A DNA stretch of 64,000 bases from an uncultured Nitrososphaeraceae archaeon. GTDB taxonomy: Archaea; Thermoproteota; Nitrososphaeria; Nitrososphaerales; Nitrososphaeraceae. A program made the translations under genes and the position numbers. Position 1 is the stretch's first letter; every line of letters begins with the position of its first letter. The notes below the pieces were generated by a model that was given only the letters and a program-made list of their open reading frames with translations, did not search any database and had not been told where the DNA came from. Shown piece after piece: positions 3,902-42,833 of this stretch. The stretch covers positions 384,001-448,000 of the forward strand of contig CAVZZA010000001.1 in the NCBI GenBank assembly GCA_963779615.1, read 5' to 3'.

Positions 3902-4040
3902 GCAGATGTGGCAGAGTGGTCATCCTAAGTCAAAGAACTAGGACCACAATATTGCGTCGGCCTTGAGTCAACATCAAGGTTGGTTAAAAGTAAGCCGATT
4001 CGCCGTATGGCGAGCAGGAGTTCAAATCTCCTCATCTGCG
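3902..4040 (+). tRNA. tRNA-Ser(TGA) with a D-loop intron and an anticodon-loop intron
   Basis: Acceptor stem GCAGATG/CATCTGC plus G discriminator; anticodon stem TCGGC/GCCGA with CT-TGA; long variable arm TCGCC-GTAT-GGCGA; T arm AGGAG-TTCAAAT-CTCCT; two insertions. Confidence 0.9.
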
Positions 4041-20907: not shown

Positions 20908-21031
20908 GCCGGGGTACCGAAGCTAGGTAAGCGTCAAAGGCCCTAAAAGGGGTCAGCCTCGAGATCACACAAAAAAAAATAAGACAGCTGATGTCCTCTT
21001 GGACTCGTGGGTTCAAGTCCCACTCCCGGCG
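20908..21031 (+). tRNA. tRNA-Ser(CGA) with a D-arm intron and an anticodon-loop intron
   Basis: Acceptor GCCGGGG/TCCCGGC plus G; anticodon stem TCAGC/GCTGA with CT-CGA; variable arm GTCC-TCTT-GGAC; T arm GTGGG-TTCAAGT-CCCAC. Confidence 0.88.
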
Positions 21032-21182
21032 CCCTACTTGTGAATTCTTTCACTAATCTTAAATATTCAGACGAATTACGTTATAATGTCTGGATTGGTA
21101 TCTACTGAAGAAAATTGCAATTAGCTAATAGGTTTACAATTTCTAAAATAGCAATAAATATGATTTATATCCATTTTTTGTA

Positions 21183-23884: not shown

Positions 23885-24664
23885 TAACCATATCCATGCT
23901 ATAAAATTTACTCAATCTAATGGAATATCCGGATTCCCAAATGAATAGAAAAAGAAGTAAAGTTCCTCATAATATTTGGCATTTAATGTATTTAGGCATT
24001 TATTGAATAAATCCAAATACATTTCATAAAATATGGGCTGAAGACTATATAATTCAGATCATTAGGGCATTTATTGCAACCATTGATAAATTATTCAATT
24101 ATTTGCATAACCAGTAAATATTTTGGATTTTATAAGGTAATCGGGCAACGACAAATCTGAACAAAAGCCTTACTCACGTTAATTTTTAAATGTAATGTAG
24201 AATTATGTCAAATAACCTTCTTAGTCATGCAGATAAACTTACTAGTTTAGGTTTCCATTCATTGTTCAATCACATCCCACTCGGTCCACTTATGGTACTA
24301 ATATACGTTCACAAGAATAATGATATATCAACAATGCCTTACAACTCAATGGAATTAGATCTCTTTACTGGTTTCAAATGCCATAAGGTCCACTCAAACG
24401 AAACAGAGACATTAAGAAGATTGGTGATATTTTTTGATTTTATTGCTACCACAAGTTAATCTAAATGAAGGATGTAAAATTTTTATAAAAGACAGCCAAG
24501 AGAATGCAATTTATCCATTGTACACTACTTTTCAATTGTATATATCAAAAAGAAAGACTAGAAGGATCCAATTAGAGAATCAAGGTTAAATCCTGTATTT
24601 ATTGGATAACTGCATTAATGACTATACCAATATGATAATTGAGAACTAGGTGAATATATTTTCA

Positions 24665-24700
24665 TAAATCCTTGAATGCAAATATATGGTTCAAATCCTA
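24665..24700 (+). repeat. tRNA T-arm-like att repeat, copy A
   Basis: TAAA-TCCTTGAATGCAAATATATGG-TTCAAATCC; aligns without gaps to copy B. Confidence 0.7.
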
Positions 24701-24732
24701 TTCTCTCTTTTTATGTTAATAGGTATAATAGA

Positions 24733-24777
24733 CGAATATGCGAGTATACTATATGGATTCAAGTCCTAATCTTCGTC
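24733..24777 (+). repeat. tRNA T-arm-like att repeat, copy D
   Basis: CGAA-TATGCGAGTATACTATATGGA-TTCAAGTCC...CTTCGTC; tail shared with copy E. Confidence 0.65.
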
Positions 24778-24900
24778 CATAGTTTGATTATCTAAAAACA
24801 AGTTTGGAGCATTAGTTACCATACACATTAACAATCATTATAATCACGACAAAGATGATAGAATTAGAATGGGATGAAATGGTATTTAGATTTTCTTTTT

Positions 24901-25098
24901 CTATTTCATATCCACGCCTATAATTCCCCCGTTTCCCCAATTCTCTTTGGAAATCTCATAGATCAAGATTCTTACCTTTTCCTCTTGTGTTTGCATAATC
25001 CTAGCGGTCTCTCTTGTCAACGCCTTGATCAACTCTCTCTTCTGCTCTACAGATCTTCCTTGGCTTATAGTAATTTCAATTACAGGCATTTTTATCAT
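24901..25098 (-). CDS. 4-oxalocrotonate tautomerase family protein
   Basis: (M)PVIEI, GRSVEQKRELI, ENWG-GG; catalytic Pro1 if started at the internal ATG. Confidence 0.93.
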   Translation of the reverse strand: MIKMPVIEITISQGRSVEQKRELIKALTRETARIMQTQEEKVRILIYEISKENWGNGGIIGVDMK

Positions 25099-25128
25099 TT
25101 ATTTTAAAATTATTTATTATTATATTAT

Positions 25129-25166
25129 CCCCTGTTTTTACAACAGGGGTTCAGGCCCTGCTCCCT
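25129..25166 (+). repeat. tRNA T-arm-like att repeat, copy H (hairpin subtype)
   Basis: CCCCTGTT-TTTAC-AACAGGGG-TTCAGGCCC; homologous to copy I. Confidence 0.6.
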
Positions 25167-25224
25167 AAGAATATTTTAAATGACTAGACTAACACGATAA
25201 TTGAAAATTAAATAACATACTTCA

Positions 25225-25267
25225 TAAACCCGTGAATGCAAGTAGAAGGTTCAAATCCCATGCCTCC
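25225..25267 (+). repeat. tRNA T-arm-like att repeat, copy B
   Basis: TAAA-CCCGTGAATGCAAGTAGAAGG-TTCAAATCCCA. Confidence 0.7.
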
Positions 25268-25395
25268 ATTGTGTACCCTATATTTACATAACAGGAAAAC
25301 AAGAGAGGTTATGACAATCAAGTATGGCAATTCATGCCCACTAAACTATGAACTACTACTTTATTTAAATAATATTTTTATTTGATTTATTTCAG

Positions 25396-26421
25396 ATGCA
25401 AGTAGGAATTGACAGTTTTGCGGCTTTTCATAATGATACCAAGAAATCAGTAAGCTCATCCGAACGCTTGCAAAGATTGGTTGAACAAATTGAACGGGCC
25501 GATCAAATTGGATTGGACGTATTTGGAGTAGGCGAGCATCACCGTCAGGGATTCCTTGATTCTGCTCCAGCCGTCATCCTGGGAGCGGCGGCAGCACGAA
25601 CTAAACGCATACGCCTCACCAGTGCAGTAACGGTATTGAGTGCAGCCGATCCAGTAAGGGTGTTCCAAGAATTCGCAACTTTGGATCTCCTGTCTCAAGG
25701 TAGGGCGGAGATGGTAGTGGGTCGCGGCTCATTCATAGAGGCATTCCCATTGTTTGGCCTGAGGTTGGATGACTACGACTCCCTTTTTTCAGAGAAGATA
25801 GATTTGCTCTTAAAGGTTCGTGACAATGAGCATGTCCATTGGTCCGGCAAATATCGACCTCCTCTAACTGGACAGGGAATCTATCCAAGGCCGATGCAGG
25901 AGCCTCTGCCGATATGGATAGGCGTGGGTGGAACTCCGGAATCTTTTGTTAGGGCTGGCTTACTAGGGTTACCACTGATGGTCGCAATTATCGGCGGCGA
26001 AACTCGCAGTTTCAAACCATTAATAGATCTCTACAGAGAGGCAGGAAAAAGGGCCGGCCATTTACCACATAAGCTGAAGGTTGGGATACATTCACTTGGA
26101 TATGTAGCAGGGAGCACTCAAAAGGCGGTTGATGACTTTTTTCCAGGCTATGCACGCAGCATGAACGAAATCGGAAAGGAACGCGGCTGGCCTCCGATAA
26201 CCCGTATGGATTTTGAAGCCCAGCGGGGTCCCAACGGCGCGCTACTCATAGGCAATCCGGAAGAAGTTACAGAGAAAATCATCAGACACAGTCAAGGCCT
26301 CGGTGGTATATCTCGCATTACTTTCATGATGAACCCCGCATCGTTACCTCACGAAAAGCTCATGCAAGCTACGGAATTAATAGGTTCACGCGTAGTTCCT
26401 GTCCTACATGAACTCGGTTAA
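25396..26421 (+). CDS. LLM-class (luciferase-like) flavin-dependent oxidoreductase
   Basis: GVGEHH, RLTSAVTVLSAADPVRV, GRGSFIEAFPLFG, GVGGTPES. Confidence 0.95.
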   Translation: MQVGIDSFAAFHNDTKKSVSSSERLQRLVEQIERADQIGLDVFGVGEHHRQGFLDSAPAVILGAAAARTKRIRLTSAVTVLSAADPVRVFQEFATLDLLSQGRAEMVVGRGSFIEAFPLFGLRLDDYDSLFSEKIDLLLKVRDNEHVHWSGKYRPPLTGQGIYPRPMQEPLPIWIGVGGTPESFVRAGLLGLPLMVAIIGGETRSFKPLIDLYREAGKRAGHLPHKLKVGIHSLGYVAGSTQKAVDDFFPGYARSMNEIGKERGWPPITRMDFEAQRGPNGALLIGNPEEVTEKIIRHSQGLGGISRITFMMNPASLPHEKLMQATELIGSRVVPVLHELG

Positions 26422-26530
26422 ATCGATCGAAAGCATAGTTTTCGACGCGACAATAAAATTTCGAAGCGTACATTTAATATTTGAAACAGCCATTTAATTC
26501 GTCTTTTTATTTGTATTGGTATACATATAT

Positions 26531-26566
26531 CAAACCCGTGAATAAAAGATGGTTCAAATCCCACCC
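26531..26566 (+). repeat. tRNA T-arm-like att repeat, copy C
   Basis: CAAA-CCCGTGAATAAAAGATGG-TTCAAATCCCAC; 3 nt shorter than copy B. Confidence 0.7.
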
Positions 26567-26884
26567 TATTCCACCTGTAACTCTATTACCAGATTATTGG
26601 TTGATTGAATTCCATTCAAATGAGAAGGTTTGTATAAATCTGTTTGATGCAATCATGGAAAATTTTAATGTACGACTCCATGATTATACAGTATGGAGTC
26701 CCAACCTTCAGCATCATTAAGCTGAAAGATCTATATGCCTAAAGCTCCATGTCTTTTAAACATATGAGTTGCATTTTTAATAATCGATACCATTTTATCG
26801 CGATTCTTTTTTGGTAACCGGTGTATTGTTATTAAATTATGTTTTCTATTTGTAAGTTCTTCTTCTGGCAGAGTTAAATTTAGA

Positions 26885-27349
26885 TCACTCATTACTTCCA
26901 TTTACCTCCGTCTTAATAAAATTCTCAAGTCTTTTGACATACCAATCCCAGCCCTCATTGTGCTCATCATATTGCAACCGATCCGCATTTGTAAACCCGC
27001 TATGGGTTAAAGTTAATTTCGTTTTATCCCTCTCTAGTTGATAAAGCTTCCAGGTAACAATAGTGTCTTTACTGTAATCAGGTTTTGTTGTAAATTTCCA
27101 AGTGTAAGATAGCTCTTTATTTGGGATGATACTAATAATTGTTCCAACAACATCATGATCTTTTTTTTCTTTTGTAACTTCCTTTGAAAACCTAAAAAAT
27201 ATTTTTCCTCCAACTCGTGGTTCTACGGTTGCTATGTTGGGGAACCACTGAGCCAGCCGCTCAGGGTTAATTAGAGCTGAATACACTTTGTCCACCGATG
27301 CATTTATTACTATTTCTTTTTTGATTGTGTCATAATCTGTATCATTCAT
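26885..27349 (-). CDS. SRPBCC/AHSA1-like protein
   Basis: INASVDKVYSAL-PERLAQWF, TKLTLTHSGF, GWDWY. Confidence 0.92.
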   Translation of the reverse strand: MNDTDYDTIKKEIVINASVDKVYSALINPERLAQWFPNIATVEPRVGGKIFFRFSKEVTKEKKDHDVVGTIISIIPNKELSYTWKFTTKPDYSKDTIVTWKLYQLERDKTKLTLTHSGFTNADRLQYDEHNEGWDWYVKRLENFIKTEVNGSNE

Positions 27350-27672
27350 CCCTTTTCCTTTTCCTTTTCCTTATTACTTGTATTCTCTACAAACTCTTTA
27401 AGATTTTCGAGACTATGCCCCCACATTTTATCAAAAAAATCCTTTATTTCTATAGTTGTTTTAGGGTTAATTGAATACCTTTTTTTCTGTCCCTCTCTGG
27501 TTTCCTTTATCAGGTCTGCATCCTTTAAAATCCTTAAATTGGTAGATACAGCAGCCAACGTTGTATCAAAATGCTTGGCTATCTCTGAAGGATACATTTC
27601 GTGTTCCCTTAGTAGCAATAAAATTCGCCTTCTATTATCTTCAGCTAGCGCTTTCCAAAGCGAACCTGTCAT
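27346..27672 (-). CDS. ArsR/SmtB family transcriptional regulator
   Basis: KALAEDNRRRILLLL, VSTNLRILKDADLI; 4-bp overlap with the SRPBCC gene. Confidence 0.93.
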   Translation of the reverse strand: MTGSLWKALAEDNRRRILLLLREHEMYPSEIAKHFDTTLAAVSTNLRILKDADLIKETREGQKKRYSINPKTTIEIKDFFDKMWGHSLENLKEFVENTSNKEKEKEKG

Positions 27673-27697
27673 TATAATAATAAAATAGTTGTATAGT

Positions 27698-27715
27698 TAT
27701 TTAAATATTTAAATA
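27698..27715. promoter_or_regulatory. 18-bp perfect palindrome, candidate ArsR operator / divergent TATA region
   Basis: TATTTAAATATTTAAATA in the 65-bp gap between the divergent ArsR and DUF899 genes. Confidence 0.5.
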
Positions 27716-27737
27716 TAATCGATTCTATCTTATCCCA

Positions 27738-28496
27738 ATGTCTATAGAAGAGCAAAAAGAAAGAAATGAAAATGACGAAAGGAATGTCTTTGATAATCAT
27801 AAAATTGTTTCGCAAAGTGAATGGATGGAAGCTCGCAAAGATCTATTAACAAAAGAAAAAGAATTTACCATTCTACGTGATCAACTTAATCAAAAGATAC
27901 GAGACCTGCCATGGGTCCAAGTTGATAAAGAGTATGTATTTGATGGACCCACCGGAAAACAAACTTTGTCAGAACTTTTTGATGGCAGAAGTCAATTAAT
28001 TGTATATCATTTTATGTATGGTCCTAGTTGGGATGCAGGATGCCCATCATGTTCCTTTTGGGCAGATAACTTTAACGGAATAGGTATGCATTTGAACCAA
28101 AGAGACGTTACTATGATAGTCGTGTCCAGAGCACCCTATAACAAGATAGATGCATACAAGAAACGCATGGGTTGGAAGTTTAAGTGGGTTTCTTCTTACG
28201 ACTCTGACTTCAATTTCGACTACCATGTATCTTTCACACAGGAAGAGTTAGATAAGAAGGAAGCCTTCTACAACTATATTGCACAAGACACACAAAGTCC
28301 AGAGAAGGAGGGAGTCAGCGTATTTTTCAAAGACCATGAAGGTCGTGTGTTTCACACCTATTCAACATATGCGCGCGGCATCGACATGTTGAATGTGGCA
28401 TATAACTACCTTGACCTAGTTCCCAAGGGACGAGATGAGGCAAATAACGAATTTCGCCAATATTGGGTTCGCCGTCATGATGAATATGGCAAATAA
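27738..28496 (+). CDS. DUF899 family thioredoxin-like protein
   Basis: LFDGRSQLIVYHFM, GCPSCSF, HTYSTYARG, PKGRDE, WVRRHDEY. Confidence 0.95.
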   Translation: MSIEEQKERNENDERNVFDNHKIVSQSEWMEARKDLLTKEKEFTILRDQLNQKIRDLPWVQVDKEYVFDGPTGKQTLSELFDGRSQLIVYHFMYGPSWDAGCPSCSFWADNFNGIGMHLNQRDVTMIVVSRAPYNKIDAYKKRMGWKFKWVSSYDSDFNFDYHVSFTQEELDKKEAFYNYIAQDTQSPEKEGVSVFFKDHEGRVFHTYSTYARGIDMLNVAYNYLDLVPKGRDEANNEFRQYWVRRHDEYGK

Positions 28497-28808
28497 CCGC
28501 TATCCATCAATTCTCTCAAACGATATCTTCATTTAATTTTTACTTTTGTATAATTATAATTGACTTTCCTTTCCTAATGCGGACAACCTAATTCTAAAAG
28601 GTTTGTTCTAATGAGAAAGACATCGAGAGATTTTGATACTTTGTCAAACGAAACCACTTTTTAGTATAGGGTATAGATAAGAAATAGATTCAGAAATACA
28701 GGTCCAATATACCATAAGAAGAAAAAGAATTTCCAGGTATTATGTTGACTAAAAATCAAACCTTGTAGTCATTATTTTCTCCCTGATCATATCCTTTTTC
28801 ATCTTAGC

Positions 28809-29158
28809 AAGCATATCAACTGCTCCTTTGGCATTATTGTAAAAGTTATGATGTTTGGAAAAAGATTTGAAATTAATGTGTCAAATTTAGGTTTCAAGTA
28901 ACTGGCCCATTGGATTTTAGATAAAATTATTTTATATTATATTTACAAACCAGCAAATTTCGTGTAATTAAAAAAAGATTTTATTTAGAAGCATATCAAC
29001 TGCTCCTTTGGCATTATTGTAAAAGTTATGATGTTTGGAAAAACATTTGAAATTAATGTGTCAAATTTATGTTTCAAGTAACGGGCCCATTGAATTTTAG
29101 ATAAAACTATTTTATATTATATTTACAAACCAACAAAATTTCGTGTAATTAAAAAAAG
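28809..29158. repeat. tandem direct duplication of about 170 bp (180-bp period)
   Basis: AAGCATATCAACTGCTCC...CGTGTAATTAAAAAAAG at 28809-28977 and 28989-29158, with few substitutions. Confidence 0.95.
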
Positions 29159-29217
29159 GAGTGAAAAATTATTTTGGGATTCATCCTTATTTATTATTTA
29201 ATCCACATTACCTTTCG

Positions 29218-30107
29218 TTATACCCTGTTGGTATTTTTGTAGGTTTGGGTTTCCCCCTCTCCTATGGTACCTGCGGCGGTATGCGGACCCACTTGACTGC
29301 AGCCACCTTCAAATCCATCAGCAACGAATGTGACTCCTGAGGCAAATTCACTTAGGCCATAGTCTCCGCCCTTAATGTAACGGTGGACAATTCTCGTCAC
29401 CTAGGAATGTGTTGGGATCAGCACTGGAAGCAGGAAAAACTAAAAATGTAAAGTCCGAAGGCTGCACATTGCTCCCCGTTGGGTCGACTACCTCCTTGCA
29501 AACGTTTAAGGTTGCTATTGATTCTGGCTTGATGGTGTTGACAATGGTAATGTGGGTTTCCCCTTCTGATATGTTGCCGATGAAGGTTACCCTTGTAGAA
29601 ATACTGCAGTCACCTGATATACTTAGTAAAATTTATGCCTGCTGAGCCTGTTTCGGAAAACTCATATTGACTTGAGGCTGCCGTGACTGCATCACAATTC
29701 TCGTCACCTAGGAATGTGTTGGGATTTGCAAGTGTGCTAAGAGTGAACTTAAAGTCCGAAGGCTGCAAATTTCTCCCTGTTGGGTCGACTACCACTTTGC
29801 AAACGTTCAAGTTCGTTGTTGTTGTTGTTAGTTTAGTTTCATTGCCCGTCTCGGGGGATGAAGCAGCAGACGTTACGGTGTTGGTGCTCTGATCGTTAAA
29901 TCCATTTACCGAGTTATCGTTTCCCTGGACAAGGGGTCCCTCATTCGATTGTCGGCATTCCTCGGATGTGTTACAAAGGTTACCCTGGCTTGAATGCAAA
30001 TCAGAATATGATTGCATGACAGTGATGCTTGTTCCTGCAAATAATAATGATATTACTGCAAATATCATGAGTAAATAATTTAAATTACGCATATAACAAA
30101 ATACCAA
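29218..30107 (-). pseudogene. secreted protein with two internal beta-rich repeats, frameshifted
   Basis: Signal peptide; repeat LNVCK-VVDPTG-N-QPSDF-F...PNTFLGDENC occurs twice (about 29695-29810 and 29388-29510); frame broken near 29610 and 29390. Confidence 0.75.
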
Positions 30108-30396
30108 AATATGTCATAATATATTTGAGGTAAGTAGATTACTATGTCAATTTTTTTAGGAGTTTATCAAACTGAAAAGAATTGCATACTAAAATGATAT
30201 GGATCTAATATCAAATATTTGATATGTAGTTTAACTATGTTTTAACGATGTGATTGTTTCACCATTTTAATGTATAGTGATTAAAGGGATTATCATATTT
30301 ACAGAAACCCTCTAACAAAGCTTCAATCTGATATCCTTCACAATTATCTTGTTATCAACATAATGGTGAGATTTAGTATAATAATTTTTTTATATA

Positions 30397-30440
30397 TGAA
30401 TCGGTGAGTATAGGGTATGGCTTCAAGTCCCACTCCTGGC
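30397..30440 (+). repeat. attR-like copy of the tRNA-Ser(CGA) 3' end, copy F
   Basis: TGGCTTCAAGTCCCACTCCTGGC matches tRNA 21008-21030 at 21/23 nt; preceded by mirror arm TGAATCGGTGAGT. Confidence 0.85.
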
Positions 30441-30463
30441 CTCAAAGATGTGTTCTTCCCATA

Positions 30464-30840
30464 TTGTTAAATACCCAAAAGGCGAAAACTGCAATAGTTG
30501 AATCTTCATAACATTTCCAACACTCTTCAATATGAGACTGTACCTGAAACAAATCACACAGATTTGAAAGGAAAATAGATTCCATAACAAAAACTATACC
30601 AAAACCTTATTTTAAAAAACACCAATAAAACTTTTAGAGAATATCCCAACCAACACCAAAATAATTTATGAGTATATTATTGCAGAACAAACCGAATTAA
30701 GTATCAAGGATTCTACTAAGGTAGGCAAGACAAAGATATTAGTTTGGCTTTCAAATTTTCATGAAAATAGTCCTTTAAAGAAGTGACCAAGCAGGAATAA
30801 TTGAATATTTCAACAATTTGCGAAAATCAAATGAAGAATC
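30464..30840 (+). pseudogene. tyrosine integrase N-terminal remnant
   Basis: Fragments RKIDSITKTIPKPYF, YEYIIAEQTELSIKDSTKVGKTKILVWLSNFH, EYFNNLRK with stops; family recognised from memory; homologous to 42598-42833. Confidence 0.65.
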
Positions 30841-30895
30841 CCCTGCAATATAAAAATATTAATAAATTCTTTAGGCCTCAAACCAAAAGATACCA

Positions 30896-31228
30896 TTAAC
30901 CAGTACTATTTGTGCCTCCTGTTTCAAGTGCCTGGTACTCCTGTAGGTTTCTCAATATGTGGAAGGCTGCAAGTGTTTTTAGTGCATTGTCTTTATCCAA
31001 ACCCTGAACTTTGTGAATTACATCACTCACTGAGGTATCCTGGCTTAACAACGGAAATTGCGATTTTATTTCACTTATTTTTTGTTCTACATTGATGTTG
31101 GGTTGATTTGTCCCGGTTGCGTTCAAGGGTTGCTGGGCAGCCGCCATGCTTAGGGGGTTGGCCACAAGTATTGTGGTTGCCAACAATATTACTGATGCAA
31201 TTGCGAAATAGTCTTTTGTGTTTGACAT
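30896..31228 (-). CDS. secreted hypothetical protein
   Basis: Signal peptide, 110 aa. Confidence 0.75.
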   Translation of the reverse strand: MSNTKDYFAIASVILLATTILVANPLSMAAAQQPLNATGTNQPNINVEQKISEIKSQFPLLSQDTSVSDVIHKVQGLDKDNALKTLAAFHILRNLQEYQALETGGTNSTG

Positions 31229-31633
31229 TACCTTATTATGGTGATGTTCTGTATTAGAGTATTTTTAAATGCGCAAATAATTATAATTATGTGTGTATTT
31301 GTTGCCCAAATAATTAATACTGTCAACGAATAAAAATTTTCTTGTGAATAAAAAATATTATTCCATTTAATAAATACCAGTTTCATTTGAGAATGTTGTT
31401 AGAATGGATAAATTATGTTAAAAAACAAAATGTAATTATTTTGTTAATACCAGGGAAAAGGGTTCTATAGTAACAGGCACAAACAAATCGTATGAACTAT
31501 TAATTTATAATTTAACTTAAATTTCGGGAAATTGGTTTAAAATAACCAAACTGTTGTTGCAAACAGTTTGGGTGGATAATATGTTATTTGGATTATTTGT
31601 AACATTTACTCAATTTAAAAAAAGAGAAACAAT

Positions 31634-31864
31634 TCATGAGATTATCCTTGCTATCGCCGATTTTATTTCTCTCTCTTTGCACACGGGACATCGCATATTT
31701 TCACTGTTAAGACGTATACTACCTGTTAATTCGTAAAAAGTTATCTTCCACAAGCAAGATTTACACTTTATAAGATGTTTAAATGGCAGATTAATGCCAT
31801 TATTGTTTGAATCATTTGTTTCCAATAAGGTATTTATTTGTCTATGGACAAGACTCAATTGCAT
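31634..31864 (-). CDS. small zinc-ribbon protein
   Basis: CKSC...CPVC. Confidence 0.65.
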   Translation of the reverse strand: MQLSLVHRQINTLLETNDSNNNGINLPFKHLIKCKSCLWKITFYELTGSIRLNSENMRCPVCKEREIKSAIARIIS

Positions 31865-32501
31865 CTTATGTACTGTACTTTGACAATATAACTAATTTCT
31901 AATGGGCCATTTTGCCATGAAATGCGCCATTTATGTCTACTAGTCAAAACAGATTTGTCAAAGCCACAGATCAAAGATAAACTGCAGATCATTACTTTTG
32001 CACGTATAAAAATCCAGCATATTGTATTTATACAAAGTAGACATAGGCATCTTCTTTATGGTATGTTGTTTTGAAAATTCAAGACTCCAAAAATTGGATT
32101 AAGGGGATACTCTGAAGTTTTTATTTTTATCCATTACTAAGAACAAACATAGCTTAATTCGTTACAGGCTGCATCTGATTTATCCATTTTAATAGGGCAA
32201 TCATAATTACATAATTATATCAGTTTTTAATACTAGTAAAATGGACGGCAAGAGAACATTCAATCATTTTTTCTCTCTATTCCTACATACAGTAAAATTT
32301 CAAAAAATAAAAATGAACGTTCCTAGTTTTAAATAAATCAATTTCTGTAATTTACTCTCTATCGCAAAATCGATATAAGAAAATTAATTCACTTATTTTC
32401 ACACAAAGATCAATTTTTGCGCATTCAAAATCCTTTTTATAAAAATCAAGATAACATTGATTATGGATTATTATCAACATAAAATAAAAAAGAAACGAAT
32501 C

Positions 32502-32524
32502 ATTACGATGGTAACCATCGTAAT
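32502..32524. promoter_or_regulatory. 23-bp palindrome, operator-like
   Basis: ATTACGATGGT-A-ACCATCGTAAT, 60 bp upstream of ORF 32584. Confidence 0.5.
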
Positions 32525-32583
32525 TATCGTGTAGATGAAAGAGAATTTGGCAAGTCTAAATTGAAAGGTGTAGGGAAAAAATT

Positions 32584-32835
32584 ATGAATATTGCCGTAAC
32601 AGAACAACAAATCTTAATCGAGGCAAAGACAAGTGGCAGTTATGGGAAAAAGAGCATCTCTTACCATGTCATAGAGTCTCCTCACGGTCTGTGCCTAAAC
32701 AAGACAGAAATAATATCAGCGCAGATACAAGCATGTGAAGGACTATTAAAATATGCAATGGATGAAACCGATTTGAGCGCCATTGAAAAGGAGATTTTGG
32801 AGTTAAGATTCGCCCTAGACCTTATTAGTTTTTAA
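32584..32835 (+). CDS. hypothetical protein
   Basis: 83-aa ORF with a helical C-terminus (IEKEILELRFALDL). Confidence 0.65.
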   Translation: MNIAVTEQQILIEAKTSGSYGKKSISYHVIESPHGLCLNKTEIISAQIQACEGLLKYAMDETDLSAIEKEILELRFALDLISF

Positions 32836-33148
32836 ATATGGATTTTGAAAATGGAACCAAAATTTAAGGATCTGAAAAATCATTGTTAACACAACAAATA
32901 GCGTCCAACAAATATTAAATAATGATACTTTTGTTTGTAAAGCGTTACAAGTAAATTACATTTGATCACAATTTTAACAAGACCCAAGTCGAGTATTTAC
33001 CATTATAGAGTACAATAAAATATTCAGTTTTTGCAAACACTTTGTTAGGATAACTCTGCATACTCCATCATAATTAACCTCATTACCTGGAAAAATTGCA
33101 TACAATGTTACATTTTGTCATATTTAGTAATTTTTAATATATTTTTCA

Positions 33149-34639
33149 TTGAATAGAAGTAAAGTGGGATTTATTAATAAGATATTTAGAAAACGGAATG
33201 AAAATGACCTCTCAAAAGGGGTCAGAGGTAATGAATCGGAAGGATCATTGACAAAACAAAATGAGGCAACGTCCCCTATCGAGAAAACCCCTGCCACCAC
33301 TACTGCCGCCACCACCACCATAAATTGGTCATCCCTATATAAGAAGGAGGATTGGTGGGCTGTTTGGATTGGATTGACAATATTTGCTCTGTCCCTTCCC
33401 TCTTATTTTGGTGTATATCTTTTGGGATGGATTCCCGTAGCCAAACCTTGGGCAGACATCAATCATGCTCTTAGCACAAAAGTGTTTGATCCATGGGTTG
33501 GCCTATTGGCAAGTTTTGTCTTTCTTGCGCTCATAATGCTACCTGTAAATCGATTCAACGGAGTTAAATCTAAAGACTGGTTTAAGGGTTTTTTCGTAAT
33601 CTTCTTTTCGGCATGGATTATCTGGTTACTCTCCAACTATTCACCTATCGTAAAGGTTATCGGAAGTGCGGAGGTCGGATACGTAATAGCATTGCTAGCC
33701 GGAATTGTGATTACAAATTTGTTACGCATACCCTCATGGCTGAAGGATTCGGCAAGGGGGGAACTATTCATAAAGACCGCAATAGTAATTTTTGGGCGCC
33801 AAGATTTTACTTACGACTTTTGTAACCAGCGCCCCCACCATTTTAGCAGCAGCCTTTCTCTCCTTTCCAGTTGTATGGGTAGTTGCATTCCTCATTTCAA
33901 AAAAAATTGGCCTTGATAAGAACTTTTCAGCAACCCTCTCTTCAGGAGTAGGTATCTGTGGTGTTTCCGCATCAATAGCAACAGCTGCAGCTATTGAGGC
34001 CCCAGCAATTTATTCTACCGTTATTTCCTCCATTATTGTAATTTTCTCCGCAATAGAAATTATATTGATGCCTTTTATCGCAGCTGCTTTCTTCCCAACT
34101 AATTTTGATGCAGCAGGAGTTTGGATGGGACTGAGTGTGAAAACAGATGGAGCTGCATCAGCAAGTGCGTCTGTGGTTGATGGCCTCATTAAGGCAAATG
34201 GATCGGCATTAAATGCAGCGGTAATCACCAAAGTAATGATTGACATTTGGATTGGGGTGATATCATTTTTACTTGCAACTGTATGGACGTACAAAATTAG
34301 AAAGAAAACCAATACAAATACAAGCCCCAGGGTCCTTTGGTAAGATTTCCAAAGTTTGTGATCGGGTATATTGCCACTAGTGCTGTGCTATCGGCGATTG
34401 CACTCACACATGCTTCAGTTGCAGAGGGGGCAAAAGCAGTCGCACCAGTAATATCATTTGGAACAGAGCCGTTAAGGACTGCGTTTTTTACCTTTACGTT
34501 TTTTGCCATAGGACTTGGCACTCAATTCTCAAAATTCAAGGAGATCAATCTCAAAAAGCCAGTAATTGCATATGCGGTTTCCTTACTCATCGCCATAGTT
34601 TGGGGAGGGATAGTTTCATATCTACTATTTGTAAAATGA
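33149..34639 (+). pseudogene. YeiH / putative sulfate exporter family membrane protein, two frameshifts
   Basis: EDWWAVWIG, ELFIKTAIV|GAKI, GICGVSASIA, (W)RFPKFVIG; extra T near 33790 and a missing base near 34342. Confidence 0.88.
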
Positions 34640-35677
34640 TTTTCAAAATGTTGACAAGACACAGATAGTTGCCCTCTTTGATTACATCCTTTTTAGTCAA
34701 AAGTCAGGCAACTAAATTGGCTTGCATGAGTATTAGGACTCGATTGAATCCCTATGGACATTTATAACAAATTCTTTTTCAGATCCAAACCCAAAAACAA
34801 TATAAAAACTTTCATGGCAAATTTATCGAGAATGATATAACTTAACCCCTACTTAATACTTGATTTTATTACATCAGATCAATTTTTGATCTGAATGTGA
34901 ATATCGAAATATTAGTTCAAGGAGGCTCATGAATACCGATTTTTTTCGTACAATAAAATTAAAAATTTACTAATTACTGTTCCATTTTTTAGTACTTGTT
35001 TTTTTTTGTACCGCTTTTTTTTAATAGTAGTCCCACCATATTTTTTTGATATTTTTTTTATAGCACACACTTGGTTGTTTTTTAGGAATTCAAGTAACCC
35101 TTGGTTTTTTGTTTGTCTGTACTTTTGCACAGGTAACATAGTGTTTAATTTAAATAAAAAGGATTTTGAATGCGCAAAAATAATCACAATGGTGCAGAAT
35201 TAATATAGCATGCGAACCAAAAAAAACATACATCCTCTATACAGTAATAAAAATAAAGGGACTGAAACAATACCCAATGTTGTATGTTTTACTATTTTTT
35301 AAAATAGCATTATGGTGTTTTGCAATTTATTCTAGATCTGTTCCTTTAAGAAAATACCATTTCATTTTGATATTCAAGTAGTTTCAAATAAATACATACA
35401 AAATAATTTTGAATGGATTCAAGAAGCATTATTCAACAATTTTGGGTGCCTTCAATATGATAAACTAACTAATATTCGCAAGATACAATCAACAAATCTC
35501 CTTGTGGATAGCGCTCAATTATTCATTAATATACTTTTTGCTATATGTTCATATCACATATACATCTTGAAAATATTATACATATTCATGTAGATATATG
35601 CAAATTTCGCATATATTTTACATTTTTTTCATATTTTTTAGATAAATTTAAATAGCTTCCGGGGCACACTATACCAA

Positions 35678-36046
35678 ATGAACAATACAACTACTTCCAT
35701 GTTAAAAAACCAGCAGTACTCTGGCTGCATCGAGAGCTGCAACGAATGCATGATGGCCTGTGAGGCCTGCTGCACCGAATGCATGACCACGTCAAACACC
35801 CAGATGGCTGGGATGATGGGAAGGTGCATGATGATGTGCAGGGACTGCGCCGACATGTGCAGGATGGCATCCATGATGATGTGCAGGGGAAGCGAGTACG
35901 CAAAGCAGGTGTGCAACATGTGCGCCGACATGTGCGAGGCATGCGCAATGGAGTGCGAGAAGATGGGCGACAAGATGGAGGTGTGCAAGCAGTGCGCCGA
36001 CATGTGCAGGAAATGCGCACAGGAATGCAGAAGCATGATGAGGTAA
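35678..36046 (+). CDS. Cys/Met-rich four-helix-bundle copper storage protein (Csp3/DUF326-like)
   Basis: Repeated CxxxCxxC; CADMC, CEACAMEC, CADMCRKCAQEC; no signal peptide. Confidence 0.9.
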   Translation: MNNTTTSMLKNQQYSGCIESCNECMMACEACCTECMTTSNTQMAGMMGRCMMMCRDCADMCRMASMMMCRGSEYAKQVCNMCADMCEACAMECEKMGDKMEVCKQCADMCRKCAQECRSMMR

Positions 36047-36951
36047 CTTTTTATTTTTTTACTTTTTTCAATTACAGAAACTGGCACAGCATAGAGAACC
36101 AAATGTCTACACCCTTTTTGTTTTAAAAAATGCCGATAATTTTCCTGTTTGCCATTTGAATAGAGTTCCTTTAACTGTTCCTAAATAACCTGATTCTACA
36201 AACATGCAGAAATTGAGTGTTTTTGGAAAAATCGTCATATTATTTTATTGTCATTGACGGCTTTTAGAAATTGATATTTAAAACAAAATCACTACTAAAC
36301 AAAAATATATTTATAAAAGGATGATATATCCTGTAATAATTTTATAGATGGCGTTTAACTACCATAATATGCATACATACATTGCATATACACGCCATCT
36401 CTTGTGCAAGCCAAGTCACATACCAAAACACACCTCATGCAAATCTGGACCATGTTTATACACCTCATTGCTATGGGTCTCAGTCAAACTCCACTACACC
36501 TACGGAGGTAAGTATCATGGATACAGGGACACTTACCAAAACTGAGGCCCATAGTTCTTACTTTTGCATATTGCATAGAATTTGAATATTCAAATCCTGT
36601 TAAAATTTTTATGCTATTGTAAATACCTTTATGTAAATGCATCAACCACTAGTAACGTTTTTTTTAAATTGATTTAGAGAAATTTGCACTATGACATTGA
36701 CGCGATTATGTGGTTATTTACAACCTTTGATTATCATGTTTAAATTAAGTAATTTAATTAGTAACCCATAAAAATAGAGGGAACAACGATCAAATTAGGA
36801 GAAAAGGAAAATCTGTCTTTGCATCGTGTTTTCAGCAACAGTATAATAGTTATTTATTTTTTATTTTTGTAAGGCATGATATGACAGACCAATCGGACAC
36901 CAAAAAGAAATTTTGAGGCATTAGCGATTACTACTGCTTATATGGAGGGGG

Positions 36952-37236
36952 TTATGGGTTGGCACTGCCTTTGTATGTCGTGGATTGCGGGTCGGTCCTA
37001 CTACCATCATCATTTCCCTCATTTCTATCATAACATGATCCCTTATCGTTTAAATCGCAGTATACATTGCCACTACACCCATTTGCACCCGCTGAGCAAT
37101 CATATTCTGAACTGGAAATGTGCTGTATGTTTTTGTTAGCAAGTGCAGCAGCGCTTGATGGAACTGCAATTGTTACAACAGACAGTATTGCTAATGTCGC
37201 AATTATGACAATCATCACCAATAATTGTTGTATCAT
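36952..37236 (-). CDS. small secreted Cys-containing protein
   Basis: Signal peptide, four Cys, CYDRN motif. Confidence 0.65.
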   Translation of the reverse strand: MIQQLLVMIVIIATLAILSVVTIAVPSSAAALANKNIQHISSSEYDCSAGANGCSGNVYCDLNDKGSCYDRNEGNDDGSRTDPQSTTYKGSANP

Positions 37237-38072
37237 ATAATATTAAAGGCAAACAAATATATAAACGAATCCTTCAAATGCCAAGGATTTACTTTATATT
37301 TATTACATTAAAAAAGTTATTTTATCATATAATTATAAATTACAACACATATTTAACAAATCTCATTAATGCTTTTAACCTAAAAAAGCATGATTTTTTA
37401 CACCTATACTCAGATTAACGTGACCTGTGAATTTCTTCGAGGATTCAGAAAAACCCCGCCAATAGTCGAATCCTTCTGAACAGACACAATCAGAAATCCA
37501 GTTAGAGATTTGTTTGCGAGCGTTCTATCAGGTTAACAGGATCCCTTGAGAAGAAATTTTAGAAAGACAGGCAAATAGTCAAAGTTCGACTAAAGAAGAA
37601 TATCGATTAACAACCACATTACAGAACATGTAATTCACACCATTATCAGAATGGCTAAAAAATGCAATTTTAACACGAGATTTGCGAATGCCGTCAGACC
37701 TTTTCATTTCTCCATTATTGATTTTGAAACTAATGAAAATACATGCATATACCAGTTTGAAAAAAATCCGAAGCAACAAAACATGGACCTCTGTTCCTTT
37801 TATTCCAGATTGCCAAAAGTTGCAAATCTTATAAAAAAGTCCTTTTGAATATTTAACATAATGATTTCACAATAAATGATTATGAAAAAATGGAGGAATT
37901 GCCAAAACCATCAATATTTCCATAATGACGGCATGAGAATAAAACATTTCTCTTGAAATGCTTTCATTATTTGATGTGGAAATAAGCCAAAAAAAATTAT
38001 ATCATCTCATCTTTAGTACAGTATTCTTCTCCCTACACTATAAATATTTGAATATTATTTAATTTGAACGGG

Positions 38073-38118
38073 TGAACCTACAAGTAGCTCTAAAGGGTTC
38101 AAGTCCCCCCCCTTCGTC
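38073..38118 (+). repeat. tRNA T-arm-like att repeat, copy E
   Basis: TGAA-CCTACAAGTAGCTCTAAAGGG-TTCAAGTCCC; left arm matches the reverse complement of tRNA ACTCGTGGGTTCA at 11/13 nt. Confidence 0.75.
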
Positions 38119-38291
38119 AATAGTCTGCCAATTCATGTTAACGTTATAACTTGACAGGATCCATGTATGAAATGGCTGATTCGTTCCTACAGAGGTTCCC
38201 ATTTTTAAATGAAGCAATTAGTGGATTCTATTTATTAGTTCTACTTGTAAGAACAATTAATTTAAATAGTCTCATATGCTATTGGTGATGT

Positions 38292-39245
38292 ATGACAAAA
38301 ATTAGCATAGCTACATTCAATTGTGAAAATCTGTTCGCTCGGTTTAAATTTACAGCAGGCGTAAATCCAGAAGATGCCATAATTGATGGTTGGCTAGCAG
38401 ATAAAACTAAATTCACAATAAATGATGAAACATCTAAAAAACTTACTGCTTTAGCAATCAAAGAGGCTAAAGCCGATATAATAGCCTTACAAGAGGTTGA
38501 AAGTTTGTTGGCGCTACGTCGATTTAGAAACAACTATCTCAAGGGCAAGGGATATGATCATATCATAGTTTTAGATGGTAATGATCCTAGATTTATAGAT
38601 GTTGCAATCATGAGTAAATACCCTTTAGAGAACATTGATACTCATGTGGATGAGTGGAATAAGGAAATAAAATGGTATACGTTTTCCCGTGACTGTTTAG
38701 AATGCGACGTCATTCTACCGGAAAACAAAAGAATAAGACTATTCGTAAACCATTTCAAATCAATGTTTGAAAAAAATGATCCATGTAACGGGAGAAAGAA
38801 GTCCCACAGAAAAAGACAAATCCAAGCTGAACGAGTAAAGGATCTTGTTTTAGACGAATTTCCCAATGGAGAAGGTGAATACGTTATCCTTGGAGATCTT
38901 AATGATTATTTGGAAACTGATTCTCAAGGAGAAACAGCTATTGATGAAATAGCTAATTGGAACATGGTTGAAAACGTTGTAAAAAGACGACCATCAGAGG
39001 ACCAATGGACTCACTATTATGAAGGCAATTCTCAGTGCGGCTTTCCAAAAACATACAAACAACTAGATTATATACTGCTATCTAAAACATTAGCTGACGC
39101 AAATTTACCTTCAATTCCAAAGATTATTCGCAAGGGACTTCCCATAAACGCTGATAAGTACACTGGCCCCAGGTTCGAGGGAGTTGGAAATAAAAAACCA
39201 AAAGCATCCGATCATTGTCCTGTTGTTGTGGAAATCAACATATGA
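38292..39245 (+). CDS. endonuclease/exonuclease/phosphatase (EEP) family protein
   Basis: ATFNCENLF, ALQEVE, GNDPR-ID, FSRDCL, NHFKS, GDLND, LDYIL, SDHCPV. Confidence 0.95.
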   Translation: MTKISIATFNCENLFARFKFTAGVNPEDAIIDGWLADKTKFTINDETSKKLTALAIKEAKADIIALQEVESLLALRRFRNNYLKGKGYDHIIVLDGNDPRFIDVAIMSKYPLENIDTHVDEWNKEIKWYTFSRDCLECDVILPENKRIRLFVNHFKSMFEKNDPCNGRKKSHRKRQIQAERVKDLVLDEFPNGEGEYVILGDLNDYLETDSQGETAIDEIANWNMVENVVKRRPSEDQWTHYYEGNSQCGFPKTYKQLDYILLSKTLADANLPSIPKIIRKGLPINADKYTGPRFEGVGNKKPKASDHCPVVVEINI

Positions 39246-39420
39246 TCTTTTTAAGATATATTAATTTAAAAATCCAGCAACAGATTCTATGTCGTCATCA
39301 ATTGTTTTATTTTGTGTCTCCTAATGAACTTTTTATTGAAATAGGACAGTTAAACAAGTTTTCGCCTTTATGTTCCTGATCTATCTTGCAAATTCATCCA
39401 ATTCCTTAATGTAACTAAAC

Positions 39421-39454
39421 AAACCACCCGTTTGAAAGACAAAGGTTCAAATTC
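39421..39454 (+). repeat. tRNA T-arm-like att repeat, copy J (degenerate)
   Basis: CACCCGTTTGAAAGACAAAGG-TTCAAATTC; followed by the same downstream block as copy D. Confidence 0.55.
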
Positions 39455-39705
39455 AAACTTGGTATGATTTAATTTTTTAAAAATAACTTTGGGGCTTTGG
39501 CGACTACACACATTAACAATCAATCAATATGATTGATTACAACACGGATGTCAGCATGAGAATGGATAAAATGGGTTTTAATAATTGAAAAATCGCACTT
39601 AACAGTCTACTGGAATTTACATTTCCTTATATGGATGCCAACGATTTGTGTTTCTTATTTGTTTTATCAAATTTCAACAAGTGAAATCTTTAATATCTTT
39701 GGCTA

Positions 39706-40242
39706 ATGTACATAGTAGCAGAGAATATGGAAGCTGTTGATTGCATTGCAACCAAGCTTGACATAAGAGAATACAGTAATGAGGATGTTCCGGCGAATAT
39801 AAGGTCAAGTATTCTTGAAGCAGCCAGGCTAACGGGCACAGGCCTTAATACTCAACACTGGAGATTTGTTTTGGTTAAGGATAAAGACAACCTCAAAAGG
39901 TTGGCGGAGGATAGCACAAGTGGAAAATGGGTTGCTGGTGCTAATTTTGCAATAATAGTATTAACAAATCCAAAATATGGTTTCCACATGATTGATGCGG
40001 GGAGAGTCTTGCAGAATATGCAGTTGGCAGCCTGGGATCAAGGAATAGGTTCTGGTTTATTCACGGGTGTAAAAGAAGAAAAACTTAGGAATGACTTTGC
40101 AATTCCGATGGATCTTAATCCCGCTGTTATAGTGGGTTTTGGATATCCTGTTAGGAAACTGACGGGTAAAAGAAAGAATCGCCTACCACGTGATGATCTA
40201 GTTTTCTATGAAAAATATGGTAGAACAAATGAACAAGTGTAA
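39706..40242 (+). CDS. nitroreductase family protein
   Basis: ILEAAR, NTQHWRFVLV, IDAG-LQNMQLAAW-GIGS, GFGYP. Confidence 0.93.
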   Translation: MYIVAENMEAVDCIATKLDIREYSNEDVPANIRSSILEAARLTGTGLNTQHWRFVLVKDKDNLKRLAEDSTSGKWVAGANFAIIVLTNPKYGFHMIDAGRVLQNMQLAAWDQGIGSGLFTGVKEEKLRNDFAIPMDLNPAVIVGFGYPVRKLTGKRKNRLPRDDLVFYEKYGRTNEQV

Positions 40243-40444
40243 TTCTTTATAATCCAAAAGGATATTATACGAATCTAATAAAAAGTCCAATAATATTGTA
40301 TCATTCCACCTTAATTCCAGAGCTTCATATTGTTAATGAGTTTTTGCTGTTCTATTGAAGTAACATAAAAAAGGAATTATTCTGGCCATCAATTTTTGGG
40401 TACGGGAAATTAATAAAAAGGAGAATTTTTTTGACCTGGTATTA

Positions 40445-40806
40445 CTATCCTATAAAATCTTCGGATTCAAAGTCAACAAAGCCTATAAAGTCAACATCCT
40501 CGCATTTATTTTTCACTGCATCTAATACGTTTTGCAAATTGTCTCTTATGTCATCTTACTTCCTGCTATCTTACCTTCTTGAAGTTCGTCCTCTAGTGTG
40601 GCCTTCCCATCTGAATCAAGGTCTCCATAAGCCAAAGCTAGTGTTGCAAGAGCAATGCCAACATCGTTGCAGTCTACCTTCGCCTTGTCATTATTCTTAT
40701 GTTTGTCACCACCGGCATATACTGAACTACAAGAAACGCTACTAGCTGCAATCATCATTGCTATGAATAAGATTATAGTAAACAAATTGTGACTAATTTT
40801 AGTCAC
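40445..40806 (-). pseudogene. secreted hypothetical protein, frameshifted
   Basis: Signal-peptide ORF stops at 40546; another frame continues DDIRDNLQNVLDAVKNKCEDVDF... to TAG at 40445. Confidence 0.6.
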
Positions 40807-41161
40807 AAGTCTTCTTAAATCAAATCATATATAAGTTTTATTTGAATAAGGAGTTTGATTTCAATTATGGAAAATAAGGCATAATCAATTTCAAAACTTT
40901 CCAAATTCAAGGCTTAATTTAACCTGCAGATTGATAACCTGAATCTTGGCCAGGTTGATGACAATAACCTCTTTTTTTACGTAAAACATGATATCCCCAA
41001 TACAAATTCTTTATTTGCATAACCATGAATTTCGTTATTCCATGATTGAACTTTAATTAATTTAATAGACTATAGGCATAAAATCTAACAGTGATATATT
41101 GGTTCTGTTTTGCATACTTTATTTTTTAAATCGATATAGAATTGGAATCAACAATACTATC

Positions 41162-41206
41162 AGATTCCCTGTTTTAATAACAAAGGTTCAGGTCCCGCCT
41201 GCCCCT
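41162..41206 (+). repeat. tRNA T-arm-like att repeat, copy I (hairpin subtype)
   Basis: GAT-TCCCTGTTTTAATAACAAAGG-TTCAGGTCCC; homologous to copy H. Confidence 0.6.
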
Positions 41207-41321
41207 GGTTTGATTTTTTAAGAAGAAGTTGGACGTTTAGGGGCCTTATCAAATCAGAACCATTTTGCTGATCTGCTTTCATATAGCACACTTGCGCTAT
41301 TAGGATTTCCCCAAATTGCTT

Positions 41322-42597: not shown

Positions 42598-42833
42598 ATG
42601 GGCATCATCAAAAAGGCAAAAACAGCAACAGTTGATTCTAAATACTAATCATGATAGTAAGATAATTCAAGTATCAACTGAAAATGATGACGAGGATTGA
42701 TAGAAAAACAGACTCGATTACAAAATCACTTCCAAGGCCTTATTTCACCAGGATTCCAAATGGGTTAGCAAAGGCCAATCCCAACAATGGTAAGGCGATT
42801 CATGATTATATTTTTGCCGGGCTGGCCGAACTT
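42598..42833 (+). pseudogene. second integrase N-terminal remnant
   Basis: MGIIKKAKTATVDS and IDRKTDSITKSLPRPYF...IHDYIFA are paralogous to the 30464-30840 remnant. Confidence 0.65.

Follow-up and report, generated by a model that had tools for sequence, protein, structure and literature searches.

A same-strand array of decayed integration junctions behind an archaeal tRNA-Ser gene, and the inverted arm beside their tRNA-like tails

The tRNA-Ser gene and the repeats downstream

The stretch of DNA analyzed here (hereafter the window) comprises 64,000 nucleotides, positions 384001-448000 of contig C1, of the archaeal genome under study (G000; 3.17 Mb, five contigs, 36% guanine plus cytosine, GC). 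We examined a family of short repeats in the window, each made up of a left arm, a spacer and a segment resembling the T-loop and 3' tail of a transfer RNA (tRNA), which follow a tRNA-Ser gene and which we read as attachment (att) junctions of integrated elements (Table 1). An archaeal ribosomal-protein/RNA-polymerase gene cluster lies directly upstream of the repeat region. The tRNA-Ser gene was recognized by hand: its acceptor (GCCGGGG/TCCCGGC with G73) is the same as in a tRNA-Ser(GGA) called by ARAGORN, a loop CTCGAGA lies between TCAGC and GCTGA with the intron behind the loop, and the gene has a long variable arm and the T-arm GTGGG-TTCAAGT-CCCAC. From this reading we infer that the anticodon is CGA. 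ARAGORN and Rfam called no tRNA in the window and thus missed the gene; introns are present in many tRNA genes of G000, T-arm introns included. Some match to the sequence of the gene was found in 40 of 40 other genomes, outside the genus mostly to the 3' end only, and the long matches among those listed came from genomes of the same genus. Another intron-containing tRNA, 139 nt long, was detected at 3902-4040 (+) by the genome-wide RF00005 search (39 bits) and was missed by ARAGORN and by the window-wide Rfam search.

An earlier, sequence-only reading of this DNA had described five gapless copies of the repeat, with exactly 21 nt between (G/A)AA and TTC, and had treated them as one kind. A scan with RAA-N21-TTCAARTCC matched exactly these five sites, all on the + strand, at window positions 24666, 24734, 25226, 30398 and 38074. 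The test against shuffled DNA that the reading called for showed that such a number is not expected by chance (100 dinucleotide shuffles: mean 0.09, maximum 1; 0/100 reached five). The motif TTCAARTCC alone occurred 12 times in the window against 2.1 expected, with 11 of the 12 matches on the + strand. Genome-wide, the exact pattern had 13 matches, eight of which belong to the family, five of those in the window; a profile search of G000 returned 16 copies at E<=0.001, six of them inside the window. The fixed geometry was thus upheld, whereas the idea of a single kind was not, because the tails fall into several tRNA types: those at 24665, 25225 and 26553 are of the tRNA-Val(TAC) type, that at 30397 is of the tRNA-Ser type, and 24733 and 38073 carry other tails.

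The same reading had held that the left arm approximates the reverse complement of the tRNA's own segment and that the real tRNA lacks such an arm, and our counts agreed. The corresponding position in the tRNA-Ser gene matched the arm at 1/8 positions, i.e., the gene is without the arm. Arms of Ser-loop copies matched the tRNA-Ser 12-mer ACTCGTGGGTTC at a mean of 9.07/12 (z = 8.7) and the Val 12-mer at 7.0, and arms of Val-loop copies had no preference (Ser vs. Val 12-mer, 6.25 vs. 6.38). When each arm was compared with the reverse complement of its own adjacent xxGGxTTC, the mean was 4.68/8 against a background of 2.04 ± 0.47 (34 copies). The longer match cited in that reading concerns the 13-mer ACTCGTGGGTTCA, which is exact at 21003 and whose reverse complement occurs at 38073 with two mismatches. 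At <=2 mismatches there were three matches against 0.64 expected, and because 3/100 shuffles did as well, the match at 38073 is weak when taken alone.

Individual copies could be tied to sequences elsewhere. The tail of the copy at 30397 equals the tRNA-Ser tail at 20/22 positions by eye and lies 9.4 kb behind the tRNA. The copy at 38073 has a sister copy at C5:845522 that reads TGAACCCACAAGT (12/13 by eye). A short-spacing copy like that at 26553 was also found behind an orthologous monooxygenase gene in G021. The arm of the copy at 39420..39468 resembles the arm of L021_324 in G011, and this copy is likely the right border of the inserted region.

Table 1. Features of the repeat array, with positions given in the window
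Feature	Position	Strand	Remarks
Intron-containing tRNA gene, read as tRNA-Ser(CGA)	20908..21031	+	hand reading; integration target (attL side), head of the array
P' repeat ACTTGTGAATTCTT	21036..21049	+	direct copy of the tRNA's ACTCGTGGGTTC, 33 nt downstream; left-end inverted repeat of the element family
Copy 1, Val-type arm and decayed tRNA-Val-like tail	24664..24712, T-loop 24690	+	nhmmer E 7.7e-8; first half of a tandem double module
Copy 2, Ser-type arm and variant tail CCTAATCTTCGTCC	24732..24780, T-loop 24758	+	pattern match
Copy 3, Val-type arm and tail	25224..25272, T-loop 25250	+	14 nt identical to tRNA-Val positions 54-67
Val-type copy, 18-nt spacing	26527..26575, T-loop 26553	+	absent from the list of the sequence-only reading
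Copy 4, element arm and displaced tRNA-Ser tail TTCAAGTCCCACTCCTGGCC	30396..30444, T-loop 30422	+	junction
Decayed 5' remnant of a tyrosine integrase gene	30652..30847	+	marks the left end of the following element of the array
Copy 5, type-B arm TGAACCTACAAGT	38072..38120, T-loop 38098	+	11/13 to the reverse complement of the tRNA 13-mer
Decayed copy, 22-nt spacing	39420..39468, T-loop 39446	+	absent from the list of the sequence-only reading

Attachment junctions of tyrosine-integrase elements

We traced the tails to complete tRNA genes of G000. The copies with T-loops at 24690, 25250 and 26553 group with a copy at C1:489857, whose tail TTCAAATCCCATTCCCTCCA, exact over 20 nt at C1:489814, is identical to the end of the tRNA-Val(TAC) gene at C1:518632-518706 (minus strand) and lies 28.8 kb downstream of that gene on the same strand. 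A 511-amino-acid integrase of family PF00589 starts 68 nt behind tRNA-Val(TAC). G000 has only three PF00589 integrases, and the other two are likewise located just 3' of tRNA genes. A third tail type is that of tRNA-Gly(CCC), which has three displaced tails downstream. In the integrases of the elements, an N-terminal stretch of ~90 amino acids and a C-terminal zinc ribbon flank a SAM-like and the catalytic domain.

The loci of relatives gave the same picture. For eight relatives we took the 20-40 kb behind the orthologous tRNA-Ser gene; the profile search of these loci listed 20 matches at E<=0.03, all on the strand of the tRNA, although one of them was merely the gene's own T-arm. The tail is repeated perfectly over 22 nt in G011; this repeat, with its arm, lies 11.3 kb behind tRNA-Ser and is followed by an integrase open reading frame (ORF) of 469 amino acids. 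Many relatives have integrase genes or fragments homologous to the Val integrase of G000 directly behind tRNA-Ser, and the Val and Ser integrases are 50% identical. Pairs of a tRNA and an att tail were found in G011, G012 and G016 as well. Comparison of occupied and empty sites showed that the right flank of attR in G016 is the sequence that directly follows tRNA-Val in G005, G023 and G019. At the tRNA-Ser locus itself, a homologue (90.8%) of window positions 39621-39966 lies only 685 nt behind the tRNA in G009, against 18.6 kb in G000, a comparison that is partial since the G009 contig ends after 346 nt of homology.

Within the window, the integrase remnant behind copy 4 was recognized by tblastn with the tRNA-Val integrase of G000 (58% over 36 amino acids, E 4.7e-6). 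Window positions 30389-30850 are 71% identical over 479 nt to the junction of G011 and the start of its integrase region, and this homology at the DNA level confirmed the correspondence to the junction and integrase 5' region of the relatives. A weaker second remnant of an integrase N-terminus occurs at 42678-42833 (+; 38% over 52 amino acids, E 7e-4), ~1.5 kb behind a tRNA-like remnant at 41167-41210.

The homology of the copies to tRNA begins at T54 or at most 3 nt before it. Identity that starts at or near T54 indicates a crossover at the T-loop, and such a crossover implies that everything left of the T-loop is derived from the element. The copies are thus more than decayed tRNA ends, as had been proposed from the sequence. 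Given the tails, the integrases and the occupied and empty sites, we concluded that decayed insertions form an array between 21.0 and ~39.5 kb, and that the repeats are the att junctions of tRNA-targeting tyrosine-integrase elements, either attR-type scars or, between tandem elements, attP-like junctions. The tRNA-Ser(CGA) gene heads a same-strand array of at least eight scars. The host family of these elements is an ammonia-oxidizer-like archaeal family from soil.

Displaced 3' tails were also seen 5-25 kb downstream of seven further tRNA genes, besides Val, on contigs C3, C4 and C5 of G000. These genes are for Met, Ala-CGC, Glu, Gly-CCC (three times), Ser-GGA and Arg-TCT (twice). A different left arm, AACCCCTT(T)ACC, with a shorter spacing, is common to the scars of Met and Ala.

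We looked for excised forms in two ways. No contig spans the joint of the G016 element in four sequencing runs, although contigs do not show rare forms, and exact-pattern scans for a free attP in viral contigs gave 0 matches. On contig G016:C91 (L100), contig pieces from one soil run (X3) begin at 1493 and end at 10134, close to both att cores; these ends hint at strains with and without the 8.6-kb element.

Several other identities were tried and rejected. The repeats are not split, permuted or intron-bearing tRNA 3' halves, as no matching 5' halves or acceptor partners were found upstream and there was no match to a tRNA model; in the case of a tRNA intron, hand reading showed that the arm does not fit tRNA positions 30-53. 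Nor are they tRNA genes or pseudogenes: ARAGORN, with or without introns, called no copy, and RF00005 found none at the Rfam gathering score, at E<=10, or in the genome-wide search at E<=1. The copies are tRNA-like in the T-loop and 3' tail only. A tRNA-Val carried by an element was rejected as source of the Val-type copies because, in the window and in 15 loci of relatives, only positions 53-75 match and there is no 5' part. A DDE transposon with a target-site duplication does not fit either, because the flanking direct repeat is always the 3' segment of the tRNA and the adjacent enzyme is a tyrosine recombinase.

The left arm and the two ends of the element

Information content across 28 ungapped copies revealed a conserved block from -26 to +20 and nothing left of -33. 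The consensus of the block is ATgAA.CC.cGA.Ta.A.G..a.GG.TTCAAaTCCCA, and its conserved positions include spacer bases besides the mirrored ones. The left arm is accordingly a 26-nt block of element DNA that abuts the T-loop. It is kept between elements whose integrases have diverged as far as those of the Val and Ser loci, and homologous arms accompany the Ser, Val and Gly(CCC) tails and at least one further type of tail. With a sequence-only model, matches that contain the arm were found in three genera of one family (g1, 7/7 sampled; g19, 5/5; g22, 2/3); elsewhere in the order the T-arm part alone matched (151 genomes searched, 46 with any match). We retrieved 20 copies from the two other genera, and although their spacers differ widely, RAA sits at the 21-nt position in 18 of them; the exceptions are L083 and L092, and L087 seems shifted by one base. 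The suggestion that the incoming DNA contributes an extra, inverted copy of the tRNA site is borne out by the conservation of this block across elements and genera, and the proposed alignment across genomes recovered the left arm and the 21-nt spacing in all three genera.

We then compared the arm with the other end of the element. The 14-mer P' lies 4 nt past the discriminator base of the tRNA, at the left end of the element, where it adjoins the integrase gene. As a direct copy of the T-stem half-site 33 nt downstream, it is present behind tRNA-Ser genes (7.78/12, z = 4.9, nine genomes) and behind tRNA-Val genes (6.85/12, z = 3.8, 27 loci). Both ends were verified, together with an intact integrase, for four elements: G000-Val (28.8 kb), G016-Val (8.6 kb), G011-Ser (6.9 kb) and G012-Ser (14.8 kb). 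In these elements, arm positions -26..-13 matched the reverse complement of P' positions +24..+37 at 12, 14, 11 and 13 of 14 positions, respectively. All four matched in one register and at most 6/14 off register, and comparisons between att types (Val arms vs. Ser P', and the reverse) gave 6-8 of 14. When 40 kb of G012 was searched blind with the reverse complement of P', the attR arm was recovered at one mismatch; the sole other match had three mismatches and no adjoining T-loop. The arm of G016 pairs poorly with its neighbor and at 14/14 with the repeat at the far end. Because arm and P' match in one register in all four elements, we concluded from these comparisons of sequence that the mirror arm is the element's right-end terminal inverted repeat, not tRNA-derived debris. 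Both repeats, in turn, resemble the tRNA's own T-stem-5'/TTC half-site.

With moderate confidence, we favor the explanation that the repeats are scars of integrase elements in a tRNA gene and that the arm is a terminal inverted repeat at which the integrase is predicted to dock. The elements recombine with the 3' part of tRNA genes, with the crossover at the T-loop, and each insertion rebuilds the tRNA and displaces its former 3' tail further downstream. The same-strand array at 21-39.5 kb arose as elements inserted into tRNA-Ser(CGA) again and again, and these elements have since decayed. Once circularized, an element would have its 20-22-bp core between the two repeats, in a quasi-palindromic attP of ~64 bp laid out as 14-mer, 12 bp, core, 4 bp and inverted 14-mer. 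We infer that both repeats may act as extra integrase-binding sites, whether as core-type copies or as arm sites. In that role they would serve to build the complexes on attP, attL and attR and to fix the distance to the crossover at 12-13 bp.

A number of observations weigh against this explanation. Only two att types are covered by the four verified elements, and the relatives are not independent. Matches of >=8/12 between the arm and the local right flank were seen in only 4/55 junctions, and over the 55 copies the mean was 4.09 compared with 4.05 for cross-pairs; a local inverted repeat between arm and right flank was therefore rejected as a rule for all copies. Few local matches are expected if most right flanks are not element ends, but they leave few pairs on which the claim of an inverted repeat can rest. 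A G011 element without integrase has a poor match of arm and P' (~9/15 by eye). The likeness of both repeats to the tRNA half-site could stem from the origin of attP, without selection. Finally, a PF00589 search of the window gave no match and no intact integrase, so that nothing in the window is likely active.

Possible roles of the arm and comparison with known systems

The sequence-only reading had offered two mechanisms for the arm, an additional recombinase-binding site or a hairpin that competes with the T-stem, as in attC folding. The former fits our data best, with the arm paired with its copy at the far end; the latter was not supported by covariation or by the folds. In the set from the genus, arm and T-stem paired in 69.6% of cells compared with 69.4 ± 1.4 in column shuffles (241/500 as high), and the covariation score was 0.158 compared with 0.152. 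The other genera, which were out of sample, gave 68.8% compared with 67.4% (103/500 as high) and a covariation score of 0.132 compared with 0.093 (14/500 as high), a marginal level that is reachable without constraint. The consensus structure from RNAalifold contained 0 pairs. Single-stranded DNA folds reached z <= -2 in only 2/10 copies, both of the Val type, and the five window copies folded at z = -1.2 to +1.3. Complementarity between arm and T-stem is not maintained by compensatory change, and the covariation analysis that had been proposed did not bear out the hairpin.

We therefore regard it as very improbable that, in the manner of attC, single-stranded DNA or RNA folds so that the arm pairs with the T-stem side and thereby competes with the T-arm. 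Fresh Val-type copies do form hairpins (9 bp, -8.3 kcal/mol, z = -3.6; 6 bp, -5.0 kcal/mol, z = -2.5), one change in G166, CCAG/CTGG, looks compensatory, and the marginal covariation in the other genera points the same way. However, 8/10 folds were not at z <= -2, including the two Ser junctions with intact tRNA-Ser tails (one of them the G011 junction beside an intact integrase), neither of which forms the hairpin; covariation was lacking in the genus set; and the G016 arm, as noted, pairs with the far-end repeat instead of its neighbor. The integrases, too, lack the integron-integrase signature. They match PF00589 and a SAM-like N-terminal domain, and their only NCBIfam match was a weak one to XerA (28.7 bits against a cut-off of 220). 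From the sequence architecture, the arm is most likely a docking site for the integrase rather than a folding hairpin.

It is unlikely, in our judgment, that arm and P' are only relics of the ancestral origin of attP, for example by duplication of a T-arm segment, with no present role, and that they have lasted only because the elements are recent or swap their ends. In its favor, column shuffles account for the complementarity of arm and T-stem, all copies share common ancestry, and many are plainly decaying. Yet the edge of conservation at -26 is sharp, with randomized sequence further left, the block survives the divergence of the integrases and the separation of three genera, and the two ends of one element match at 11-14 of 14 positions when the level between att types is 6-8. 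More doubtful still is the alternative that the repeats are bound not by the integrase but by another factor, for instance a host protein or a directionality factor resembling an excisionase, or act as a promoter or terminator signal for genes of the element. An AT-rich run stands directly before most arms, and P' is situated in the interval from tRNA end to integrase start, which measures 68 nt in the Val element of G000. Against this, an AT-rich run carries little information in a genome of 36% GC, no candidate factor emerged, and both repeats resemble the very half-site that the integrase itself must recognize in attB.

An integron-like cassette was also considered, and rejected because a monooxygenase gene is flanked on both sides by copies in only 2/14 loci (G000 and G021); in one further locus, L069, a single copy lies on one side. 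In the window, this luciferase-like monooxygenase gene, at 25396-26421 (+), has a Val-type copy on either side. Its occurrence across the genus is patchy (24/34 genomes including G000, some with several copies), and one copy is inside the tRNA-Ser island of G011. Integron attC sites share with the repeats the imperfect inverted repeats beside the recombination point and the same-strand arrays with intervening genes, but the repeats described here have no conserved fold, no integron integrase and no general flanking of single genes. Tn916-like conjugative transposons have imperfect inverted repeats at their ends, and the third symmetry element of yeast FRT is an extra half-site beside the core. 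These systems have other hosts, other recombinase families and targets other than the tRNA T-loop; the resemblance is a lead only.

Integrated elements of Thaumarchaeota are known to use tyrosine recombinases for insertion into the 3'-distal part of tRNA genes, intron-containing tRNAs included, with short att repeats (median 17 bp) and arrays that arise from re-use of one site (Krupovic et al. 2019, PMC6563490). The present family has the tRNA 3' targets and the arrays in common with them, and its att repeats are 20-22 bp. In the portions of that article available to us only direct repeats are described, with no mention of an element-side arm, a fixed spacing or terminal inverted repeats, and the name 'Nitrosocosmicus' has 0 occurrences in the available text. 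A crossover at the symmetric 7-nt loop of the tRNA, with an identity block from loop to 3' end that restores the tRNA, was described as the T-loop sublocation (Williams 2002, as cited in PMC8371274). The family shares the T-loop crossover and the restoration of the tRNA with that scheme, which as cited concerns the core only; here, the T-stem half-site is present twice more, beyond the core and at fixed distances. In phage lambda, attP is larger than attB, and its two arms, on either side of a short common core, bear additional sites for proteins (PMC8371274). The available account of lambda gives arm sites that are unlike the core sites in sequence, span ~240 bp and need IHF and Xis, whereas the present family, as known from its sequence architecture, has one core-like inverted 14-mer on each side within ~64 bp. 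According to the same 2021 review, archaeal tyrosine recombinases need nucleotides outside the identity block; arm sites are not described in the portions available, where 'arm-type' has 0 occurrences for archaeal integrases (PMC8371274).

Archaeal mobile elements insert mainly at tRNA genes, and this family provides a defined, predicted attP layout of ~64 bp with which recognition by an archaeal integrase beyond the shared core can be examined. The arm profile is also a marker for old and new integration scars and for island borders in genomes of soil ammonia oxidizers. It is usable even where no integrase remains and where tRNA finders miss an intron-bearing target.

Copies of the two types also occur in tandem. 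In at least five genomes, and at two loci of G000, a Ser-type module comes 60-225 nt after a Val-type one and never before it, with distances of 60-100 nt for the tandems of relatives that match the one in the window: in addition to 24664-24780 in the window, such tandems were seen at L022 17478/17546, L031 11560/11654, L030 15641/15575, L066 2982/2901 and G000 C1:324498/324273. The Val module of G007 still ends in a tRNA-Val tail that is perfect over 20 nt, even though the module is part of the tRNA-Ser island. A past change of target may have left the tandem behind, or it may represent an element with a pair of attachment sites. An extension of this idea, which we consider rather unlikely, is a modular attP, in which two inverted end-repeats of constant geometry that mimic the T-arm half-site would dock extra integrase protomers, a swappable 20-nt core would retarget the element, and the tandems would be dual-target elements. 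Dual-target integration was not found described for archaeal integrases in the parts of the literature that were available.

Remnants of another tRNA-like kind occur at 25130-25175 and 41167-41210, consisting of a CCCTGTTTT..ACAGGG hairpin followed by TTCAGG. They resemble the T-stem intron region of a real tRNA at C3:1025088-1025210 (minus strand), and a genome-wide regular-expression search for the CCCTGTTTT type returned only those two, the tRNA itself and one unrelated match. The end coordinate given in the sequence-only reading, 41206, falls inside the later remnant. Elsewhere in the array, three overlapping or abutting ORFs at 33149-34639 (+; 255, 183 and 100 amino acids) are membrane-protein-like and look like one frameshifted gene. 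Finally, Cys and Met are extremely abundant in an ORF of 122 amino acids at 35678-36046 (+), which contains repeated C..C motifs and overlaps with ORFs in other frames.

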